A DNA stretch of 44,439 nucleotides from an uncultured Candidatus Saccharibacteria bacterium (lineage in GTDB: Bacteria; Patescibacteriota; Minisyncoccia; Phycocordibacterales; DATDWN01), in assembly GCA_964424295.1 (NCBI GenBank), contig CAYRHZ010000001.1:1-44439 (forward strand). Direction: 5' to 3'. The notes under the pieces were generated by a model, which saw nothing but the letters and a program-made list of their open reading frames with translations, was not told where the DNA came from and searched no databases. Positions 1,125 through 37,294 of the stretch are shown here, one piece after another (the stretch's first letter is position 1; each line of letters begins with the position of its first letter). Both the position numbers and the translations under genes were made by a program.

Positions 1125-1703
1125 CTACTTCAAAGAACCCGTCTTCTGGTAGTTCTCCCAGACCGGAATCCACTCCTCACGAAGAAGACCAAGCTCAATC
1201 CTGTCCCAGTACTTGCCGTGACGGAACATCGCCTGACGCTTCTTACCTTCGATCTGGTAGCCACAACGCAGGCTGTAGTTAAGACTGCGCTCGTTGAAGG
1301 CGATGACGTCGGAGTTAATCCGACGAAGGTTCAGAGTATTGAAGGCGTAGTCGAGAAGCGCCATCTTGGCATCACTCCCGAACCCCTTGCCCCAGTACTC
1401 CTTGTCACCAATGAGAGCCCCCGTGGTCGCCACCCTGTTGACCCAGTCAATCCTGTGAAGGCCCATAAGGCCGATTGCCTTGCCCTCCTTGGTCACGATG
1501 ACCAGGACGATGTTGTCCTTGTCCTTGCACAGCCCGTCCACCCAGTCTTCTTCAAACTTCTGTGTGGTAGGAACCACACTTGAGACGAACTGTCTGACTT
1601 CTGGATCGTTGATCCAGACAAGTATTTTCGGAATATCCTCCCGAGAAACTGGTCGAAGATTTGTTTTGTTGCCCAACAGGAACACAATGTTTTCGGTCGA
1701 CAT
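1125..1703 (-). CDS. GNAT family N-acetyltransferase (RimJ/RimL-like), GC-rich
   Basis: 192-aa protein with a typical GNAT core (…GLMGLHRIDWVNRVATTGALIGDKEYWGKGFGSDAKMALLDYAF…). An AGGAGG site (plus-strand cctcct at 1712-1717) lies 8 nt upstream of the ATG. Codons are visibly rich in G/C at the third position, unlike the neighbours. Confidence 0.85.
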   Translation of the reverse strand: MSTENIVFLLGNKTNLRPVSREDIPKILVWINDPEVRQFVSSVVPTTQKFEEDWVDGLCKDKDNIVLVIVTKEGKAIGLMGLHRIDWVNRVATTGALIGDKEYWGKGFGSDAKMALLDYAFNTLNLRRINSDVIAFNERSLNYSLRCGYQIEGKKRQAMFRHGKYWDRIELGLLREEWIPVWENYQKTGSLK

Positions 1704-2003: not shown

Positions 2004-2516
2004 TTACTGACCGGCCTTCTTGCCGGTCATCAGAGCGTCAGGGGTGTTGCGACCCCTTGAGGGTAGTTGTGAACGAAGTGCTGCTCTGAATACGTTTGCA
2101 CCTCGAGGCACAGTGGCTCCGCAGACCTGCTTAGTTTGAACGGCAGGCATAGGAGGTCGCACCACTTTCGGTCTCTGGTCGCCACTCAGGATTCGATCTT
2201 TCTTCCTGAGAAAGCAGACGGCCCTGCGACCGCAAAGAACCATGACGATTCCGTACCCTCGGTAGAACCTCGTGTCCCCCTTGAACCGGTCATCGAACTT
2301 CTGCTTGACGTGCGAGGCAACCGGCATGTATTCCTTCTCCGCCAAAAAGCTAGCAAAGTAGGCGTACATGTCCTTAGGTGGGCGACTATTCATGTCGCAA
2401 ATCACCCGAGTGAACTGATCCAGGGTGCCGTTTTGCTGACAGCACATCAGGATGTTCTGGTCGCACTCGCAGAGCTGTGTGAATTTAACACCCAACTCAT
2501 CTGCCATTCTCTTCAC
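2004..2516 (-). CDS. hypothetical protein, GC-rich orphan (170 aa, Cys-rich N-terminus, basic C-terminus)
   Basis: Long ORF in a GC-rich island. GTG start at 2516 with GAGGGAG immediately upstream; alternative ATG at 2507. No family recognised by eye. Confidence 0.6.
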   Translation of the reverse strand: MKRMADELGVKFTQLCECDQNILMCCQQNGTLDQFTRVICDMNSRPPKDMYAYFASFLAEKEYMPVASHVKQKFDDRFKGDTRFYRGYGIVMVLCGRRAVCFLRKKDRILSGDQRPKVVRPPMPAVQTKQVCGATVPRGANVFRAALRSQLPSRGRNTPDALMTGKKAGQ

Positions 2517-3271: not shown

Positions 3272-4840
3272 TTAATTTTTTGGTAATTCCAAATAGAATG
3301 TAGATCCTTTACCAACCCCCTCCGATTCCGCCCTAACACTTCCTTTGTGCGCCTCTACTACCCCCTTAACAAAGGCCAAACCATACCCTGTAGAATTTAC
3401 GTTCATCTTTAATGACTCAGCACCTCTACCGCCAGACTTAAATAATTTTGTTTTATCTTCTGGAGAAATACCTACACCAGTATCCTTTATTGTCATAACT
3501 ACTTTATCAGAAACTATTAAACTAACTTCAATACTTCCCTCTAGTGTGTAGTTTATAGAGTTGTCTATCATATTTTTTACAACCTCAGAAAGCTGTCTTT
3601 CATCTCCCCTTATTAAATAATCTCCCTTTGAAATTTCTAAAGAAATCTTTAGTCCTTTTTTCTCTGCGTATTCTTTCTGTTTTGCAAAAACAGTTTCAAC
3701 AATTTCCCTGAAGTTAATATCTGTCATATCATAAGGTAATGTTCCGTTTTCCGCACTAGCTCCATGTAAGATACTTTGAACATAATCCACTCCCATGTTA
3801 GTCTCTTCAAGACCTTTTTGAAGTAGAGGTATTGCATCCGCTGGCATATTCCCGTAGTCATCAGTCAAAAGCTCTGCAAAAATATTTTTTGCGTTTCCAA
3901 AACGACCCTTAACCTGGTGGTTCATAAAATGAATAAGGTTAGACTGACCTAAGTTTGCTTTCTGCAAATCTTGTGCTAGTTTTTCTATGTTTTCACGAAG
4001 TGAAACCTCATTTAGCACACTTTTAATTAGGAATACTCCAATGATTAGTGTGACCAAGAACAGCAGTGAATTTATTATTTGATCTTCGAATGTTGTGGAG
4101 AAAAAGGCTCTTGCTAAAATAAAAACCCAGAGAGCAAACATTAAAACCTCTGTAACTACAACTTTCATATTAAACAAATGATGTCTTGTTATGGAGTAAG
4201 CAATTGAAGCCACCATACTAAATGAAAATAATGGTCCTAAATATATATACTTGTAATTTCCAAAAAATGGCAAAAACAAGTTAAAAACCATACCAAATAT
4301 AAAACCAACCAATGTGCCATAAATTATGAATTTCAATTGATTCTTCTCATCCAGATTGCTTGTGTATACATAAGAAGTGATCAAAGAGTAATATGCGAGA
4401 ACAACTAAAACTAGAAAATAGCCAGCGTAAATTAAATAACTGTTACTGTTAAATACAACATCCTTTCCCCAACTAGTACCAAACACCGTGTTGATTAAAA
4501 AATTTTTATCTGTAAACAATAAGCAAAGTAGTATAAACGGGAGCACAATTAACGCTTCAACTCTTTTGCTTGGAGATTTATTTAGAAAGATGTAAGAAAA
4601 GTACAGAAAAAAGGCCGGTATTCCAGCGGCAGAAATGTAGTAGAAATTTGCAAAATAAAGTGATGTAGAAAAATTAGCCTCTAGTAGAAAATATCCTAAA
4701 CCAACAGCCCACATAGAAGCAAAGAGCACAAAAATAGAATATACAATATTTGTTTTGTCTCTTTTTCCGAAAAGAACAAAAAGGCTGAGTAGGCAATTAA
4801 CTGTTGCTGTAACAAATAGTATTATAGTTTGATAATTCAT
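3272..4840 (-). CDS. multi-pass membrane sensor histidine kinase
   Basis: The hydrophobic N-terminal half has multiple predicted TM segments. It is followed by an H-containing dimerisation region (FMNHQVKGRF) and an HATPase_c-like C-terminus (…DTGVGISPEDKTKLF…GYGLAFVKGVVEAHKG…). Confidence 0.8.
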   Translation of the reverse strand: MNYQTIILFVTATVNCLLSLFVLFGKRDKTNIVYSIFVLFASMWAVGLGYFLLEANFSTSLYFANFYYISAAGIPAFFLYFSYIFLNKSPSKRVEALIVLPFILLCLLFTDKNFLINTVFGTSWGKDVVFNSNSYLIYAGYFLVLVVLAYYSLITSYVYTSNLDEKNQLKFIIYGTLVGFIFGMVFNLFLPFFGNYKYIYLGPLFSFSMVASIAYSITRHHLFNMKVVVTEVLMFALWVFILARAFFSTTFEDQIINSLLFLVTLIIGVFLIKSVLNEVSLRENIEKLAQDLQKANLGQSNLIHFMNHQVKGRFGNAKNIFAELLTDDYGNMPADAIPLLQKGLEETNMGVDYVQSILHGASAENGTLPYDMTDINFREIVETVFAKQKEYAEKKGLKISLEISKGDYLIRGDERQLSEVVKNMIDNSINYTLEGSIEVSLIVSDKVVMTIKDTGVGISPEDKTKLFKSGGRGAESLKMNVNSTGYGLAFVKGVVEAHKGSVRAESEGVGKGSTFYLELPKN

Positions 4841-4842
4841 AT

Positions 4843-5745
4843 TTACTTCTTTGCAACTACCATGGCGTGAACTTTTAAAGGTTCATAAAAAGCTTTTATA
4901 CTATTATACTCAAAACCTGCTTTATTAACTAGACCTCCTAACTCTTCGGCAGTCCTGTATATCATCGGCCAGTCAATTACGTTTGTGATAAACTTTTCTT
5001 CCGGATTATGACTAATATTTGAAGTAATTAGTACTCCGCCGGGTTGCAGTATCTTATATATTCCTTCAAAAATTTCTAGCACCTTTTCATCACTAAAATA
5101 ATCTAGTAGCCCCACTATTTCAACCAAATCATATTTTTGTGCTGCTGAATTTCTTAAAAAAGACCCAGCTGAATCTTGTACCCAATTTAACTTGATGGGC
5201 AAATGACTTATGTGAACCGACATGTCTTTACTGTACTGGATTGCGTGCTCGCTCTTGTCTAGGAAAGTAATGGATAGTTTTGTGCCTTGTAAATAATGTC
5301 CATCCTTAACCACCTCAACTATCGCCCGAGAGGAGCCAGATGCAATGCTAATAATTTCAATATCTTTATCAAATTTTGAAATTGAACTTAAATGTTTTCT
5401 AAGTTCTCTTTTTACAAATTTTAAACGATTTCTAACTGCCTTAGAATTATTTACGTTGAACCATACATACTTAAAAAACTTCCCGCCGATTTTTTTTAGT
5501 GAAAAAAGATCACCTTTACTATACAAAACCTCTAATGCTTTATGGCTTGTAACATTATCAATTACGACTGCGGCCGAATTATTTGTTTTTCTAATTAATT
5601 TTTTGAAACCCTTCGGAAGTGAGTTTAAAACTGGTATAAAAAACAAATTAAATGCTGATTTAAGTGATGAATTCGTTTCTAAATTTAAGTCTGGATCATT
5701 ATCAACATATGCACTTATTTTAATTTCGGATATTTCATTTTTCAT
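4843..5745 (-). CDS. probable class I SAM-dependent methyltransferase-like protein
   Basis: Degenerate motif I (IISIASGSSRA) and post-I/II-like segments (YDLVEIVGLLDYF, ILQPGGVLITSNI). Its stop lies 2 nt from the kinase start. Confidence 0.5.
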   Translation of the reverse strand: MKNEISEIKISAYVDNDPDLNLETNSSLKSAFNLFFIPVLNSLPKGFKKLIRKTNNSAAVVIDNVTSHKALEVLYSKGDLFSLKKIGGKFFKYVWFNVNNSKAVRNRLKFVKRELRKHLSSISKFDKDIEIISIASGSSRAIVEVVKDGHYLQGTKLSITFLDKSEHAIQYSKDMSVHISHLPIKLNWVQDSAGSFLRNSAAQKYDLVEIVGLLDYFSDEKVLEIFEGIYKILQPGGVLITSNISHNPEEKFITNVIDWPMIYRTAEELGGLVNKAGFEYNSIKAFYEPLKVHAMVVAKK

Positions 5746-11757: not shown

Positions 11758-11958
11758 GTGAGTTACTACCGGCACGACGACACCCCAGTTCGATGGACCG
11801 ACCTTGCTATCAAGGTTCGTACCTGCCCCGACTGTGGCAACAGTTACACAGGAATAAGTCGGCACCACATAACGTGTCCAAAGAAGGAGGTCAAGAGAGT
11901 CGACGAAAAGAAACCTAGACCGGGAGGTGTAGGCAGTGACCTCATCTTCTTCGAATAG
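11758..11958 (+). CDS. hypothetical small protein (66 aa) with a CxxC…HHxxC zinc-knuckle-like motif, GC-rich
   Basis: GTG start with a good SD. The sequence is MSYYRHDDTPVRWTDLAIKVRTCPDCGNSYTGISRHHITCPKKEV…. The antisense 96-aa ORF has a TTG start, no SD and a low-complexity sequence. Confidence 0.5.
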   Translation: MSYYRHDDTPVRWTDLAIKVRTCPDCGNSYTGISRHHITCPKKEVKRVDEKKPRPGGVGSDLIFFE

Positions 11959-16661: not shown

Positions 16662-16838
16662 CTACTTCAGATGCCGGGTCCCCAGAACTGCGTGAACGTA
16701 GACTGGTTCACCGTCGATGACCATCGTGCCCGAGGCGTACTCAGCGTCCCTCTGTCTCGGACGACGACGAGGTTTCGGTCGATCGGCCTTACGAACGTGC
16801 TTACTGCGACGCTTACCCCTGATCCTGCCTTCTGCCAT
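16662..16838 (-). CDS. hypothetical small basic protein (58 aa), GC-rich, absent from the ORF track
   Basis: Hand translation gives MAEGRIRGKRRSKHVRKADRPKPRRRPRQRDAEYASGTMVIDGEPVYVHAVLGTRHLK. AGGAGG (plus-strand cctcct at 16844-16849) lies 5 nt upstream of the ATG (16836-16838). A TATAAT (16862-16867, minus strand) lies further upstream. Confidence 0.55.
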   Translation of the reverse strand: MAEGRIRGKRRSKHVRKADRPKPRRRPRQRDAEYASGTMVIDGEPVYVHAVLGTRHLK

Positions 16839-16909: not shown

Positions 16910-17521
16910 ATGGATAACACACAGAAACTCATTGAACTATTCAAAGAATTCCCCGGAATCGGGCCACGACAAGCAAAGCGTTTTGTGTATTTTTTACTAA
17001 ACAAAAACCCTAGTTACTCGAGTGACCTTTCATCACTTATAAAAGAAGTTCGTTCAACCGTTCACTCTTGCGATACTTGTTTCAGGTTTTTCCCAAACGG
17101 AACAAGTTCGACCTGTCCTATTTGCCGAGACTCTACGCGCGACAAGAAACAACTAATGATTGTTTCAAATGACGTCGATTTTGAAAATATAGAGAAAACA
17201 AAATTCTATGGAGGTTATTATTTTATTCTCGGTGGCTCAGTACCAATTCTTGAAAAGAATCCTGATAAAAAAATAAGACAAAAAGAACTATTGGAAGGAG
17301 TGGATAAAAAGATAAAAAATGGTTTATCAGAAATAATTATCGCCTTAAACTATAACCCTGAAGGAGAAAATACCTTATCCTACCTTGTTGAAATACTATC
17401 GAAACATGCCCAAGAAAGTAATATAAAGATCTCGACATTAGGCCGGGGACTCTCAACCGGAACAGAGCTTGAATACTCTGATGGAGATACTATTAAAAAC
17501 GCTTTAAAAAACCGACAGTAA
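16910..17521 (+). CDS. recR: recombination protein RecR
   Basis: LIELFKEFPGIGPRQAKRFVYFLL (HhH), a C4 zinc finger (CDTC…CPIC) and a Toprim-like C-terminus. Confidence 0.93.
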   Translation: MDNTQKLIELFKEFPGIGPRQAKRFVYFLLNKNPSYSSDLSSLIKEVRSTVHSCDTCFRFFPNGTSSTCPICRDSTRDKKQLMIVSNDVDFENIEKTKFYGGYYFILGGSVPILEKNPDKKIRQKELLEGVDKKIKNGLSEIIIALNYNPEGENTLSYLVEILSKHAQESNIKISTLGRGLSTGTELEYSDGDTIKNALKNRQ

Positions 17522-17566: not shown

Positions 17567-17868
17567 CAGAAGTTGGTTCTGTGCATAAGTTAACAAACTC
17601 TTGTTATTTTATTCACGGAACCAGCTGGGGTTTCTGCGACGGGGACTCCCTACCCGTCTGAGCTTGGCTGGGGGCAGACAAGCTCGCAGAAACAAGCTGC
17701 AGTACTTAGCGCAGTTTGAGAAGGGGTCGCTCAGGGCCCCCTGAGAGCTTGGCTCTCGACTCACTGGCTGTGTTCCGTGCCTTATATCAACATGAAGCTG
17801 GGAAACCAGCAAAGAGCCAGACTGAGGGTGACCTCCCTTGAAACAGTCTGGCTTTTTCCTTTTATGTA
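17567..17868 (+). ncRNA. unclassified structured RNA (about 300 nt), GC-rich
   Basis: No credible ORF. Long-range helix 17614-17628 / 17764-17779 (8+7 bp, including U-G and G-U pairs valid only on the plus strand). Nested 9-bp helix 17631-17639 / 17684-17692. Several local hairpins, including GCUGG-GAAA-CCAGC (17807-17820). A 10-bp terminator stem 17825-17834 / 17854-17863 is followed by U-run UUUU. The ends are approximate. Confidence 0.6.
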
Positions 17869-17877
17869 AAAAAACAA

Positions 17878-17902
17878 CCTCCGGATGGAGGTCATTTTTT
17901 AT
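17878..17902 (-). terminator. rplU intrinsic terminator
   Basis: The minus-strand RNA reads UGA-CCUCC-AUCC-GGAGG-UUGUUUUUUU. Confidence 0.8.
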
Positions 17903-18219
17903 TATTTTATGCTATCAATAGTTACCTTAAACCAAGGTTGCCGATGTCCATTTTTCTTGAAATATCTAGATTTTTGTTTGTATTTTATAACCTCAACTGT
18001 TTTGTTTCTTCCAATCTCTTTTAGAGTTCCCTCTACTTTTGATGTTGCAATGTAAGGAGTGCCAATATTAGTGTCTTTTCCGCCATCAACAAGCAACACC
18101 TTATCGAAAACAATCTTGTCTCCCACCTTGAAAACGCCCTTAAATTTTTCAATTTTAACGACATCTCCCTTAGAGACCTTGTATTGCTTTCCGCCTGTAG
18201 CGATTACTGCGAATTCCAT
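17902..18219 (-). CDS. rplU: 50S ribosomal protein L21
   Basis: MEFAVIATGGKQYKVSKGDVVKIEK is a canonical L21 start. Confidence 0.93.
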   Translation of the reverse strand: MEFAVIATGGKQYKVSKGDVVKIEKFKGVFKVGDKIVFDKVLLVDGGKDTNIGTPYIATSKVEGTLKEIGRNKTVEVIKYKQKSRYFKKNGHRQPWFKVTIDSIK

Positions 18220-19977: not shown

Positions 19978-20220
19978 ATGGATACTATGCCAGTCATGGT
20001 GGAGCAAGTCAGGGCACGTTACAAAGCCCTGAAAGATGCCCACCCGGGCAAACCAGTCGACTTCCCTGCTGTATTAAGAGAAGTCGTAAGCGGAAACGGT
20101 TTCCGCGGAGAAGACTTCGGAAGGAAGGTCAAGGAGCTGTCCGCGGCGTACGCGACAGACAAAAAGAAAAGGCAAAGAGCGCTTTGGAATAGAAATTGGG
20201 GCCGAACGGCTCCACAGTAA
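19978..20220 (+). CDS. hypothetical small protein (80 aa), GC-rich orphan
   Basis: ATG at 19978 with GAGG at 19968-19971. The sequence is MDTMPVMVEQVRARYKALKDAHPGKPVDFPAVLREVVSGNGFRGEDFGRKVKELSAAYATDKKKRQRALWNRNWGRTAPQ. No family recognised. Confidence 0.55.
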   Translation: MDTMPVMVEQVRARYKALKDAHPGKPVDFPAVLREVVSGNGFRGEDFGRKVKELSAAYATDKKKRQRALWNRNWGRTAPQ

Positions 20221-24108: not shown

Positions 24109-24417
24109 TTATTCTGCGGTGAAATCGGTGAACTGCATCCACATGGGGAAGGGCTCGCCCTCCCACTGTACGCGGATTATGTTGGTGTGTCTCCCTTCTT
24201 CGCCGGCGCGACAGAACTCGACGATCGTCCCAGCCCGACCCTGTTCGATGAGCGGGTACTTGCCGGAAGAGACGACGCCCTGGTGAAGCTCGAGCTTCTT
24301 CGTGTAGACGATGATGGCGTTGATCTTCCCGTCCTTTTCGAGGTATGCGGGACCTCCCGGATCGGGAACAGTCGCTGACTTCGGAACGTGTGCGACGCGA
24401 ATGGACATTCCGGGCAT
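24109..24417 (-). CDS. hypothetical protein (102 aa), strongly GC-rich orphan
   Basis: ATG with AGGAG (plus-strand ctcct at 24424-24428) 6 nt upstream. The sequence is MPGMSIRVAHVPKSATVPDPGGPAYLEKDGKINAIIVYTKKLELHQGVVSSGKYPLIEQGRAGTIVEFCRAGEEGRHTNIIRVQWEGEPFPMWMQFTDFTAE. Hand count gives 39/60 G+C at 24181-24240. Confidence 0.65.
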   Translation of the reverse strand: MPGMSIRVAHVPKSATVPDPGGPAYLEKDGKINAIIVYTKKLELHQGVVSSGKYPLIEQGRAGTIVEFCRAGEEGRHTNIIRVQWEGEPFPMWMQFTDFTAE

Positions 24418-34403: not shown

Positions 34404-35651
34404 TTATTTCAATGCACTTACCGCCTCATCTTCTGACATCATCTCCGATTCTGCTTTTGTTCTGAATTTTACTTCTACTTTATCTTGCTCAACTGTTTTA
34501 TCACTAACCACAAATCGAACTGGAATTCCAATAAGATCTGAGTCAGCAAACTTTTCTCCTGGGCGTAGATCCCTATCATCGTAAAGAACTTCTACTCCGG
34601 CTTTCGTTAGTCTGTCATATAAATTGTCAGCGTATTCTACAGTTTTATCATTTACTCCTAGTCGGACCAAGTGAACGTGGAAAGGAGAAACTTCTTTTGG
34701 CCAGATAATTCCCTTGTCATCTGCAAGAACTTCTATAATTGTTCCCAAAAGTCGAGTTGGGCCTATACCGTAACTACCCATAACAACGGGGTGTTCATTG
34801 CCTTCTTCATCTTTATACTTTAAACCTATGGCATCTGAAAAACGCGTACCTAGATGAAAAATATTTCCAACCTCTACCGCTTTTTTCTCCACCAATTCAC
34901 TTTTTTCTATGCCTAGTTTTTTAAGATTCTCTTCAGTATAAACCTCCCTATTTAAAGCCATTTTCTTACCTTCATGGACGTAAATAACATCTTCACCAGA
35001 TTCAGTAAGAGTCTGGAACTCTTCTGAAAAATCAGCAAAAATACCTCCGTCAGCAAAGGTAACATAAGTTTTGTCACCAATACCAAGTCTTTGGAAAATT
35101 TTTATATATGCGTCTCTTATTTTGTTGTAGTCTTCTGTGTGTCCGTCATTGTCTTTTGAAAAAGAATACATATCCTTCATCATAAACTCCTTTCCACGCA
35201 TAACACCGCTTTTCGCCCGAAGTTCGTTTCTAAATTTATTCTGAAACTGATATGCAAGAACTGGTAAATCTCTATATGAAGAAATATGTTCGCTCATTAT
35301 TCTTGTGAGTGGTTCTTCGTGTGTAATGCCAAGACCTGTCTCTCCACCACTTTTTAGCTCTGTTTTAAACCAATTATCAACTTTTGCATCATCCCATCTG
35401 TCTGTTCTAGACCAAAGTTCTTTGTCCTGAAGTGCTGACATCAGTAGCTCCTGCCCACCAACAGCATTCATTTCTTCTCTAATTATCTGAACTATATTAT
35501 TTAGTGTTCTAAGACCTAATGGTAAATACGAATAAACCCCCGCAAGTTCTTTGTGTACGTATCCCGCACGAATAAGGTACTCTGCATTTTTTGAAGTCTC
35601 GTCTGCAGGCGCCTCTTTTCTTGTCTTTGTAAAAAGTTGTGTTTGTCGCAT
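34404..35651 (-). CDS. proS: prolyl-tRNA synthetase (bacterial type, lacking the INS editing domain)
   Basis: MRQTQLFTKTRKEAPADETSKNAEYLIRAGYVH… plus class II motifs and a C-terminal anticodon-binding domain. Trimmed from the 507-aa track ORF to the ATG at 35651. Only ~45 aa lie where INS normally sits. Confidence 0.9.
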   Translation of the reverse strand: MRQTQLFTKTRKEAPADETSKNAEYLIRAGYVHKELAGVYSYLPLGLRTLNNIVQIIREEMNAVGGQELLMSALQDKELWSRTDRWDDAKVDNWFKTELKSGGETGLGITHEEPLTRIMSEHISSYRDLPVLAYQFQNKFRNELRAKSGVMRGKEFMMKDMYSFSKDNDGHTEDYNKIRDAYIKIFQRLGIGDKTYVTFADGGIFADFSEEFQTLTESGEDVIYVHEGKKMALNREVYTEENLKKLGIEKSELVEKKAVEVGNIFHLGTRFSDAIGLKYKDEEGNEHPVVMGSYGIGPTRLLGTIIEVLADDKGIIWPKEVSPFHVHLVRLGVNDKTVEYADNLYDRLTKAGVEVLYDDRDLRPGEKFADSDLIGIPVRFVVSDKTVEQDKVEVKFRTKAESEMMSEDEAVSALK

Positions 35652-35694
35652 AAAAGTTTTGTAGCTAAATAGTATCCTAAAAGTATATTTTGAG

Positions 35695-35875
35695 CAAAAA
35701 GAAACCCGCGCATAGTTCGCGCGGGCAGATTGTGGCAGGAAGAGGAGCAATCGGTTGTTCGGTGCACCGTGATGGCGTTGGGACTGAGTGCCCCACTGCA
35801 AGAGGTCCAGTATTGGACGTTTAGTGGTCAGTACCAAGGTTAACGGCAAGTCAGCCGACACCCCTCCGCCCGCCA
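35695..35875 (-). promoter_or_regulatory. structured GC-rich leader with an intrinsic terminator upstream of proS (candidate attenuator or riboswitch-like element)
   Basis: 12-bp long-range helix GGCGGGCGGAGG (plus 35863-35874) / CCUCUUCCUGCC (plus 35734-35745), with G-U pairs valid only on the minus strand. Terminator CCCGCGC/GCGCGGG (35705-35725) is followed by UUUCUUUUU, about 45 nt before the proS ATG. Confidence 0.55.
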
Positions 35876-35881
35876 AGAAAA

Positions 35882-35909
35882 ACTCTACTACTTTATAATT
35901 TTTTTGCAA
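35882..35909 (-). promoter_or_regulatory. promoter TTGCAA-16-TAGAGT driving the proS leader
   Basis: On the minus strand the -35 is at 35904-35909 and the -10 at 35882-35887. It directly abuts the terminator of the upstream RNA. Confidence 0.45.
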
Positions 35910-36150
35910 GAAAAAAGGCCGCTCCACTCGGAGGGGCCTGCACGAAACTCGTGCTTTGGGGGAACGTACAACGGACGAACAGGGGGGACTGCGGGGACTT
36001 TGGGAGTCGAGGCCTCATCACCAGGATAAACCGAACCCGGTGTCGGTAGTCCTGGGCTTTACCTCTAACCCTGGTACTGGAGAAGTCGCTGGAAGCGCAC
36101 TTCTGCAATATACAGAGCTGCAAAGTCCGGCACCATCCCCCCTGTTTTCC
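35910..36150 (-). ncRNA. unclassified structured RNA (~240 nt), GC-rich
   Basis: No credible ORF. 11-bp perfect long-range helix (plus 36136-36146 / 35978-35988) and a nested 8-bp helix (36121-36128 / 35995-36002). Internal hairpins include CCAGGA…UCCUGG enclosing ACCGA/UCGGU. Terminator AGGCCGCTCC-actc-GGAGGGGCCT (35916-35939) is followed by UUUUUU on the minus strand. The ends are approximate. Confidence 0.6.
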
Positions 36151-36156
36151 ATCTAT

Positions 36157-36185
36157 GTTATAGCACGAATACAATAAAAAAGCAA
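36157..36185 (-). promoter_or_regulatory. promoter TTGCTT-17-TATAAC for the 35910-36150 RNA
   Basis: On the minus strand the -35 is at 36180-36185 and the -10 at 36157-36162. Confidence 0.45.
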
Positions 36186-36196
36186 ATGTGGCAGAC

Positions 36197-37294
36197 TTAG
36201 AGGAGTTTTAGGATGTCATTTCCTGTGACCAGAAGCATTACCAGCATTAAAAATACAAAACCGAGAATATTAGTCCATTTTACAATATTTGGGTTTATTG
36301 GGCGTCTTATTATCGCCTCAATAGCAACAAAAAGTAGTCTGCCTCCATCCAAAGCTGGAAATGGCACGAGATTAATAACAGCCAAGTTTATAGAAATGAT
36401 CGCAGTAATAGTCAGTAGATAACTAAAGCCTAGGTCGCTCGCCTCTTTTACAATACCTGCAATACCAACAGGACCTGCGACCTGTGAAAAATCTGATTTA
36501 AAAGTAATTGTTTTCCAGAGAAAATCTGCGAGGCCAATGGCTGTGGCTTTCAGTAAATACCATGTACTTTTTGCACCCTCAACAAGAGAGTTTATTGGAG
36601 AAAGTTTTAGTGTTCCTACCCACTCCATCGAAATACCAATAATTTTTTTGCCTTCGATTAAATTTAAACTTGGGGTCAGGTTAAACTCTTTTTCTCCATT
36701 TTTGACTGAACTTGTTTTTATATTTAAAGTTTTAGTTTCATTTTTTGAAATAAATTCTTGGACTGTTTCTGGATACAAAGGAATTGAAAGTGTTTCCTTG
36801 CCATTAGAAATAGAAACTATTGTATCTCCCGCAATTAACCCAGCGTCTTTTGCCGGAGAATCCTGTAATACCTCAGTAATAACTAAATGGGCATCATTTA
36901 AAACGCCCATAGTATTGTGTGGTAAGGCAGAAGAAGTTCCTATGAAAAATCCTAGAGAAATAATGAGCCATGCAAATATTACATTAAATGTAACTCCAGC
37001 AACTAGTACAAGGGCTTGTATCCATTTTGGTTTATAAACAAAACTTACGGACTTGTTTTCTTCTGTTAAGCCCTCAGAATGAGCATCCTCACCAAAAATT
37101 TTAACGAATCCACCAAATGGGATGGCATTCAATGTATAAAGAGTACTTCCCCACTGCTTTGAAAAAAGCTTTGGCGGAAATCCTATACCAAATTCATCCA
37201 CTCTTATTCCAGATTTTTTAGCAACCAAAAAATGCCCAAGTTCATGAACAAAAACTAGTATCGCCAATATGATTAAAAATATTATTACTGTCAT
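36197..37294 (-). CDS. rseP: RIP (site-2) zinc metalloprotease RseP
   Basis: HELGHF (HExxH) in the first TM segment, a central PDZ region, and a C-terminal LDGG motif (PFPALDGGRL). Confidence 0.92.
   Translation of the reverse strand: MTVIIFLIILAILVFVHELGHFLVAKKSGIRVDEFGIGFPPKLFSKQWGSTLYTLNAIPFGGFVKIFGEDAHSEGLTEENKSVSFVYKPKWIQALVLVAGVTFNVIFAWLIISLGFFIGTSSALPHNTMGVLNDAHLVITEVLQDSPAKDAGLIAGDTIVSISNGKETLSIPLYPETVQEFISKNETKTLNIKTSSVKNGEKEFNLTPSLNLIEGKKIIGISMEWVGTLKLSPINSLVEGAKSTWYLLKATAIGLADFLWKTITFKSDFSQVAGPVGIAGIVKEASDLGFSYLLTITAIISINLAVINLVPFPALDGGRLLFVAIEAIIRRPINPNIVKWTNILGFVFLMLVMLLVTGNDILKLL

Follow-up and report, generated by a model that had tools for sequence, protein, structure and literature searches.

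A candidate family of structured RNAs with a conserved C-rich tail in the rseP-proS spacer of a Parcubacteria clade

We analyzed a 44,439-nt stretch of contig CAYRHZ010000001.1 (hereafter the window), whose host belongs, judging by its RseP homologues, to the Parcubacteria/Minisyncoccia of the candidate phyla radiation (CPR), and characterized in it a structured RNA gene, termed RNA_A, that lies on the minus strand (36185-35911) between rseP and proS. Both neighbors were identified using NCBIfam equivalog models, rseP by TIGR00054 and proS by TIGR00409 (415 bits, compared to a cut-off of 306.7), and the gene order holB-frr-rseP-proS-mreB is kept among the related loci (designated L001 onward). 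The RNA_A region forms a GC island, with 55-61% GC compared to 37.6% for the window, and a 507-aa open reading frame (ORF) that reaches position 35927 proved to be an over-extension of proS across this stop-poor, GC-rich sequence, the start of proS being at 35651 and not at 35927. The prolyl-tRNA synthetase that it encodes is of the short form (415 aa). RNA_A consists, in order, of a promoter, a GC-rich RNA and an intrinsic terminator, and its parts, several of them taken from the minimum free energy (MFE) structure, are as follows.

36157 to 36185, minus strand: predicted promoter, with a -35 box TTGCTT (36185-36180), a 17-nt spacer and an extended -10 element TGCTATAAC (36165-36157), as read from the sequence.
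36121 to 36150, minus strand: 5' strand of the closing helix P1, GGA.AACAGGGGGGAU.GGU..GGACUUUG, purine-rich and opening at the presumed transcription start (MFE).
36067 to 36119, minus strand: arm P2 of a three-way junction, a 53-nt hairpin AGCUCUG...CAGGGUU (MFE).
36009 to 36065, minus strand: arm P3, a 57-nt hairpin GAGGU...GCCUC with CCAGGA/UCCUGG and CCGA/UCGG helices and an AAAG / UGAUGAG internal loop (MFE).
35973 to 36002, minus strand: 3' strand of P1, CAAAGUCC.CGC.AGUCCCCCCUGUU..UCC, pyrimidine-rich (MFE).
35939 to 35971, minus strand: tail, with UUGUAC (35971-35966), the C-rich motif UUCCCCCAAA (35964-35955) and a small hairpin GCACGAGUUUCGUGC (35954-35940).
35911 to 35938, minus strand: intrinsic terminator, GGCCCCUCC-GAGU-GGAGCGGCC followed by U6 (sequence, MFE and terminator scan).

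The -10 hexamer TATAAC (36162-36157) is preceded by TGC, making it an extended -10 element, and the first G of the 5' GGAAAAC of the RNA is at 36150. A simple promoter scan did not flag this promoter, because TTGCTT fits TTGACA poorly; it was called because the extended -10 element is conserved across 13 related loci, where the 5' GGA(A) of every one of the 13 family members described below is preceded, at a distance of 6-10 nt, by a TGnTATAAa box. At the other end of the gene, the terminator stem (A)GGCCCCUCC-GAGU-GGAGCGGCC(U) spans 35939-35916, contains one C.C mismatch and is followed by T6 down to 35911, and a terminator is present at the equivalent position in all 13 members. The first-pass annotation of this locus, made from the letters and their open frames, had described the promoter TTGCTT-17-TATAAC, the long-range helices, an arm with CCAGGA/UCCUGG and ACCGA/UCGGU, a UGAUGA element and the mismatched terminator with its T6, and all of these were found where it had placed them. 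Its two long-range helices are indeed perfect, AACAGGGGGGA (36146-36136) being fully complementary over 11 bp to UCCCCCCUGUU (35988-35978), 158 nt downstream, and GGACUUUG (36128-36121) pairing over 8 bp with CAAAGUCC (36002-35995), yet they are not separate elements: in the window both are parts of a single 26-pair closing rod, P1, of which the 8-bp helix forms a lineage-specific inner extension. Nor did the three or more internal hairpins that had been counted hold, as the MFE structure contains two internal arms (53 and 57 nt) set on a three-way junction, giving the RNA a Y shape. For arm P2, whose sequence is not conserved, similarity to L029 suggested an alternative pairing, in which GGGUUAGAGG may pair with CCUCGACUCC.

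The fold of RNA_A is far more stable than expected from its composition, with an MFE of -109.3 kcal/mol compared to -80.3 +/- 4.8 kcal/mol for 200 dinucleotide shuffles (z -6.09; none of the 200 as good), and z values of -4 to -6 were obtained for 9 of the 13 members. The plus strand of the region gave a z of -4.53. Folding energy favors the sense strand only slightly, and the strand was assigned on account of the promoter and the terminator. The C-rich motif of the tail is predicted to be single-stranded, with a probability of being unpaired of 0.98 in the window and a median of ~0.83 over the members; pairings of this motif with intramolecular partners (5' leader, 5' strand of P1 and 3' strand of the terminator) were inconsistent across members.

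Counting the window, 13 distinct versions of RNA_A were found at the same position between rseP and proS, the other 12 being those of L013, L014, L015, L016, L002, L024/25, L026/27, L029/30, L031, L032-35/37, L038 and L039/40, which answers in the affirmative whether similar RNAs accompany this gene pair elsewhere; L001 and L028, in addition, carry near-identical copies of the window RNA. When the window RNA was compared to the related loci by nhmmer and blastn, only these two near-identical copies were matched. All 13 versions reside in genomes whose RseP is at least ~70% identical to that of the window, and more distant relatives (RseP 55-62% identical) harbor other RNAs or none at this site. 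L006 has no RNA in its spacer, and L020 has no RNA_A and other RNAs in its place. Common to the family are the TGnTATAAa box, the 5' GGA(A), P1, an interior, the tail and the terminator. The RNA is ~240 nt long in the window and 180-230 nt in the relatives, with a body of 110-180 nt, an interior of 55-122 nt and a P1 of 13-26 pairs, the sequence of which differs by genome while its pairing is always kept. The sole conserved primary sequence of RNA_A is that of the tail, with the consensus UUGUAY...YCCCCACA (CCACCC occurs three times in the tail of L032), and no copies of this motif were found outside the rseP-proS spacer, either in the window or in the related loci examined. The sharing of k-mers among interiors does not exceed that of shuffled sequence, and a residual similarity was seen between the window and L029, which share AGGGUUAGAGG and UCGACUCC in the same order. 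Based on these comparisons and on the searches described below, RNA_A is a predicted member of an RNA family that is limited to one Parcubacteria clade and that matches no known family.

A further locus, L036 (~1725-2566), is on a contig whose sequence is identical to that of L032 across rseP and as far as the middle of RNA_A, where, inside arm P2, it switches to more than 800 nt of 60% GC DNA that runs to the contig end and is unrelated to the other loci examined; either DNA has been inserted within the RNA gene, or the assembly is chimeric at this junction.

The long-range closing helix is supported by compensatory changes among these positional homologues, as judged from predicted pairings. 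Cognate P1 strands pair at -30.3 kcal/mol, compared to -17.3 +/- 4.7 kcal/mol for non-cognate strands, and the cognate 3' strand is the best partner for 11 of the 13 5' strands. In a nine-pair core, whose register was anchored by hand on a conserved CGG/CCG, both sides have changed in 8 of 9 pairs, and standard pairs occupy 89.8% of cells, compared to 73.2% in shuffled controls, none of 500 reaching the observed value, and 44-54% when the partners are slid. The same direction emerged when the twelve full-length members, the window omitted, were aligned by MAFFT without supervision, with 75.6% of cells paired compared to 66.2% in shuffles (0 of 500 as high) and a covariation score of 0.45 compared to 0.27. 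Conservation extends to the overall shape: the abstract shape [[][]], i.e. a closing rod, a three-way junction and two arms, was obtained for 12 of the 13 bodies and for only 39% of versions with shuffled interiors (binomial P ~1e-4). The junction strands measure 0-14 nt, mostly 0-6 nt, with no large two-sided central bubble and no nucleotides conserved in common among the 13 members.

The pair L014 and L026 illustrates how constraint is distributed along the gene. Their RseP proteins are 97% identical, and the 4-fold degenerate sites of rseP just 59% identical, and therefore a large neutral divergence separates the two. In 20-nt windows, the promoter and the terminator of RNA_A are 85-100% identical and the proS promoter 100%; the outer P1 strands are 60-85% identical and include a G-C to U-A compensatory change, and the terminator includes one from A-U to G-C. 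For the tail, identity varies from 65 to 100% depending on the window, amounts to ~90% across a 61-nt blastn match and is 100% in the 3' part, and the interior of ~85 nt is only 20-45% identical, with its length unchanged. We had considered the interior to be hypervariable between near-identical strains, a view withdrawn in light of the 59% identity at 4-fold sites, and an inversion of the interior between the P1 repeats was likewise discarded, as its reverse complement does not match by eye. Taken as a comparison of sequences, these data indicate that the interior of RNA_A is under no primary-sequence constraint, its shape and GC content persisting, and that the tail (35% C, 18% G) is the part constrained in sequence, under a purifying selection much stronger than that acting on the body.

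Searches for a known family were negative throughout. Rfam 15 retrieved only two tRNAs from the whole window at gathering score, and nothing meaningful on either strand of 35400-36500 at E<=10; the related loci (18) yielded no relevant match, six member loci being searched at E<=10 and seven more at E<=0.1. ARAGORN found no tRNA or transfer-messenger RNA (tmRNA) at the locus, its only hits in the window being tRNA-Glu and tRNA-Asn elsewhere, which are also the two that Rfam retrieved. Nothing similar to RNA_A was found in phage and plasmid collections, nor anything relevant in the literature on structured RNAs of CPR. A six-frame comparison revealed no conserved peptide, since its matches, spread over both strands and several frames, are accounted for by identity at the nucleotide level; the ORFs of 93 aa (minus strand) and 73 aa (plus strand) exist, and the first reading of them as spurious holds. 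The same is true of its description of the whole as a stand-alone, ~240-nt, structured, non-coding minus-strand RNA of unrecognized family, which came through the Rfam scans of both strands, at every threshold tried, and the ARAGORN scan.

We considered whether a highly divergent housekeeping RNA (6S, signal recognition particle RNA, RNase P RNA, tmRNA or 5S) could have been missed by Rfam models in CPR, since none of these RNAs was detected in the 44-kb window, and since RNA_A recalls 6S RNA in its size, its strong promoter, its closing stem and the rapid drift of its sequence. The likeness to 6S RNA (RF00013 and relatives) consists of a length of ~200 nt, an abundant-looking transcript, a long closing stem and rapid drift with structure kept; 6S is, however, a rod with a large central bubble and lacks a conserved 3' tail, whereas RNA_A has the [[][]] shape with short junction strands in 12 of 13 bodies and receives no Rfam score. 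RNase P RNA was rejected for want of an Rfam match on either strand, the body being too small and its sequence not conserved. In bacterial RNase P RNA, which also has conserved regions II, III and IV, conserved region I (CR-I, GGAAAGUCC) is located 5' of CR-V and forms the P4 pseudoknot with it. The resemblance to CR-I that had been noted as incidental is just that: on the transcribed strand the AAAGUCC-like segment is paired in an ordinary nested helix and lies 3' of its partner, an order opposite to that of P4. The Y shape, with a 5'/3' closing helix and two arms on a body of 110-180 nt, also recalls phi29 pRNA and 5S rRNA, but there is no phage context or similarity, the 5S model gave no match, the sequence of RNA_A is not conserved and its P1 is two to three times longer than helix I of 5S. 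A tRNA or tmRNA was rejected on the negative ARAGORN and Rfam results at the locus, and a hammerhead or other small ribozyme (CUGANGA, GAAA and UH core) on the absence of conserved junction nucleotides and of an Rfam match, the UGAUGA of the window lying in the internal loop of one arm and not being conserved. Given, in addition, that neither the window nor six other members produced even a sub-threshold match to the housekeeping models, and that an interior unconstrained at the L014/L026 divergence is unlike catalytic or ribosomal RNAs, we consider a divergent housekeeping RNA the least credible of all the explanations.

The spacer that holds RNA_A varies in length among relatives from 15 nt (L006) to ~800 nt (L020), and contains 0-3 GC-rich units. 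Each of these has a terminator and a promoter-like box to itself. The further features of this spacer are as follows.

35697 to 35909, minus strand: RNA_B, a second unclassified RNA gene, with a promoter-like TTGCAA (35909-35904), 16-nt spacer and TAGAGT (35887-35882), and an RNA at ~35875-35697.
L016 ~4020-4235 and L020 ~3330-3560, rseP-proS spacer: RNA_C, sequence-conserved, GC-rich and terminator-ended.
L002 ~5300-5560 and L020 ~3600-3880, rseP-proS spacer: RNA_D, sequence-conserved, GC-rich and terminator-ended.
35649 to 35697, minus strand: putative proS promoter and start, with a -35 box TTGCTC (35697-35692), a 17-nt spacer, a -10 box TACTAT (35674-35669) and the ATG at 35651.

RNA_B is not part of RNA_A and shares its GC-rich island. 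It has a closing helix GGCGGGCGGAGGGG / CUCCUCUUCCUGCC, a conserved GGCUG...GAACAACC (GG(C/U)UG...GARCAACC across homologues) and a strong terminator GCCCGCGCG..CGCGCGGGU at 35726-35704, and it folds with a z of -3.6; its homologues in L005 (5377-5499), L016 (3812-3975) and L020 (3144-3304) display covarying pairs. None of RNA_B, RNA_C and RNA_D matched Rfam. Directly after the last terminator, TTTTGCTCAAAAT...TA(G/C/T)TAT is conserved in nearly all related loci (L004, L005, L013-L015, L017, L024, L026, L029, L031, L032, L038 and L039 beside the window), the ATG lying 6-19 nt past the -10 of TTGCTC-17-TAnnAT. We infer that this element is a functional proS promoter, which implies that the proS mRNA would be leaderless or have a very short leader. 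proS would thus be transcribed from its own promoter, just downstream, so that RNA_A makes no evident leader, and the upstream spacer units are probably separate genes.

These features bear on the possibility that RNA_A controls proS in cis, as a leader or attenuator read through when proline or Pro-tRNA is limiting or by transcriptional insulation or interference, one form of which would be a T-box-like or T-box-derived tRNA-Pro sensor, in which CCC-A in the tail would serve as the codon-like specifier. The proS T-box leader of Bacillus, in the rasP-proS spacer, has the same position, and the likeness to such a leader (RF00230) includes a location after the RseP/RasP gene and before proS, a similar length, an intrinsic terminator directly upstream of an aminoacyl-tRNA synthetase gene, and proline codons, followed by A, in an unpaired tail; read-through transcripts would also be translatable, since genes here need no Shine-Dalgarno (SD) sequence. 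RNA_A nevertheless lacks the T-box sequence, the UGGN bulge, the antiterminator and the Stem I motifs. RF00230 gave no match in the window or in six member loci, whether at gathering score or at E<=10, nor in seven more loci at E<=0.1, the 14-nt T-box sequence (..GGGUGGNACCGCG) was not found within 3 mismatches near any terminator of the 13 members, GGUGGNACC was not found within 1 mismatch in a sensible place, and the G-poor tail cannot form an antiterminator with the 5' strand of the terminator. Moreover, the conserved proS promoter comes after the terminator, a complete other RNA gene stands between RNA_A and proS in the window, L016, L029, L031 and L039, and proS follows a spacer with no RNA in L006 and one with other RNAs and no RNA_A in L020. 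Cis control of proS thus seems to us improbable.

A related proposal is that of a short proline leader peptide, whose translation would start at the conserved UUG of UUGUAY and continue across the C-rich motif (Pro-His or Pro-Pro), with ribosome stalling at the Pro codons controlling the terminator. UUG directly follows P1 in all 13 members, and the frame from it or from another nearby start reads P-H, P-P-H or PPPRPPP in many (e.g. L039, L032 and L024). This reading is uninformative, though, as CCCC encodes Pro in every frame and CCCCACAY encodes Pro-His in two of three. In 3 of 13 members (L015, L016 and L038) the UUG frame is no longer than 1-2 codons, the lengths range from 1 to 110 residues with no conservation of stop positions, the supposed ORF carries 2-nt and 4-nt indels between L014 and L026, and its start codon adjoins a 20-bp GC-rich helix, all of which makes a leader peptide extremely doubtful.

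RNA_A is not the only GC-rich island of the window. Small ORFs of 55-64% GC are found at 1125-1703 (-), 2004-2516 (-), 11758-11958 (+), 16665-16838 (-), ~19980-20220 (+) and 24109-24417 (-), each with a strong SD sequence and most with an obvious terminator of their own, whereas the AT-rich core genes have no SD sequence at all; they are without a Pfam match except for one, a GNAT acetyltransferase, and resemble a set of genes that are foreign or specially expressed. A further GC-rich unit, at 17585-17860 (+) between recR (16910-17521, +) and rplU (17902-18219, -), is closed by a long helix, CACGGAACCAGCUGGG / CACUGGCUGUGUUCCGUG, within which lie several hairpins, and has a strong terminator and an MFE of ~-124 to -128 kcal/mol, with no RNA_A tail motif and no Rfam match. 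Elsewhere in the gene cluster, frr and rseP, only 4 nt apart in the window, are separated by a spacer grown to ~130 nt in L028 (1359-1494) and L031 (1869-2001), where it contains a conserved stretch, ..AGCACG.ATAAAT...CTCG.CTACCCG.CTGCGAAGTCTC.., which the window does not have.

With at least six other GC-rich islands in the window consisting of orphan small ORFs with their own signals, a spacer whose content shifts from 0 to 3 units, and an RNA interrupted in L036 by more than 800 nt of GC-rich DNA, RNA_A might itself be inserted or remnant GC-rich DNA that has no function of its own, e.g. a relic of GC-rich cassettes, its hairpins being incidental. Such a relic is difficult to reconcile with the conservation, far beyond the neutral level, of the promoter, the P1 pairing, the tail and the terminator, with the compensatory changes in P1 and the conserved shape, or with the lack of similarity to phage and plasmid records, and we regard it as very unlikely.

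To summarize, the comparisons at the sequence level demonstrate that RNA_A is a conserved, stand-alone and structured gene, non-coding by prediction, with a constrained tail that is predicted to be single-stranded. It displays the traits of a small RNA (sRNA) gene, namely a predicted promoter and terminator of its own, no coding capacity and a conserved candidate seed that is predicted to be accessible, YCCCCACA. The function that we favor, tentatively and with low confidence, is that of a trans-acting regulatory RNA working through its C-rich tail. RNA_A would act in trans, with the conserved single-stranded tail as its functional seed, which would base-pair to a G-rich site, with GUGGGG at its core, on at least one target RNA; the closed body, rich in GC, would mainly stabilize the transcript and present the tail, and the terminator, together with the separate proS promoter, would insulate RNA_A from proS. 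That the tail pairs to a G-rich partner would be the simplest interpretation if the C-rich seeds of Gram-positive sRNAs are taken as a model. Accessible C-rich (UCCC) motifs serve as seeds of the Rsa-type sRNAs and RNAIII of Staphylococcus aureus, and RNA_A resembles these C-rich-seed sRNAs of Firmicutes (RsaE/RoxS, other Rsa RNAs and RNAIII) in that its gene stands alone, under a promoter of its own and ending in an intrinsic terminator, and in that an accessible C-rich motif is the only conserved primary sequence and the remainder varies. In contrast to them, it presents CCCCACA in a linear tail and not UCCC in hairpin loops, it possesses a large Y-shaped GC-rich 5' domain to which they have no counterpart, its host genome is largely without SD sequences, and no sequence or Rfam relation links them.

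Several points weigh against a trans-acting, tail-based function. No RNA target was found among the neighboring genes or in the 44-kb window: complementarity of the tail to the 5' regions of proS and rseP in the 13 loci was no better than that of shuffled sequence, and against 43 start regions of the window nothing convincing rose above shuffled tails. The core genes of the window genome lack SD sequences, and therefore few substrates would exist for a classical anti-SD mode. A GC-rich, shape-conserved body of 110-180 nt exceeds the usual need of a stabilizer and hints at a function of its own, e.g. protein binding. The function of the RNA_A promoter and the start of transcription at G 36150 are themselves predicted, the nine-pair test of P1 depends on its hand-set register, and the comparative tests rest on related, non-independent sequences, so that their numbers overstate independence.

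The size and shape of the body lead to a second interpretation, that RNA_A is a protein-binding RNA (a scaffold, a sponge or a ribonucleoprotein component), in which a protein would read either the Y-shaped body or the UUGUAY and C-rich elements of the tail and be sequestered or assembled by the RNA, which would not pair with other RNAs. A shape conserved without its sequence would be in keeping with this, as would a closing rod that amounts to 13-26 bp of double-stranded RNA, two short conserved single-stranded motifs resembling protein sites, and the failure to find a complementary RNA target. Yet the locus shows no linkage to a candidate partner gene, its neighbors being holB, frr, rseP, proS and mreB, the junction nucleotides are not conserved, and interior k-mers are shared at the level of shuffled sequence. 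We judge protein binding to be unlikely, if still worth weighing.

Returning to the tail as the functional element, a more far-reaching and highly speculative version, to which we attach very little weight, would make RNA_A the founder of a CPR-specific, Y-shaped class of RNAs, acting as a T-box-independent tRNA-Pro sensor or sponge. The tail would pair with the anticodon loop 5'-UGGGG-3', coupling proline charging to proS or to translation, and the spacer would be a nest of RNA genes tied to this function. If true, the arms would be free in sequence, with the shape, the closing rod and the proline-codon-like CCCCA tail fixed, and the up to three unrelated, unclassified RNA genes stacked in the spacer would mark the nest.

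CPR bacteria (Patescibacteria) constitute a large share of bacterial diversity, and to our knowledge almost nothing is known of their regulatory RNAs. The locus described here provides a concrete new candidate RNA family with comparative support and an unusual evolutionary signature, in which a conserved promoter, closing helix, shape and 3' tail surround an interior that drifts at an approximately neutral rate, and it directs attention to a single conserved spacer, that between rseP and proS, which gathers several distinct unclassified RNA genes in relatives. Should the tail prove to be neither a seed nor a tRNA-Pro-binding element, the family would still be a useful addition to RNA family databases, where such GC-rich islands stay unannotated; should it be one of the two, RNA_A would represent the first regulatory RNA mechanism described in CPR. 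On present evidence it is not a new kind of system, and it offers a tractable entry to the RNA biology of these bacteria.

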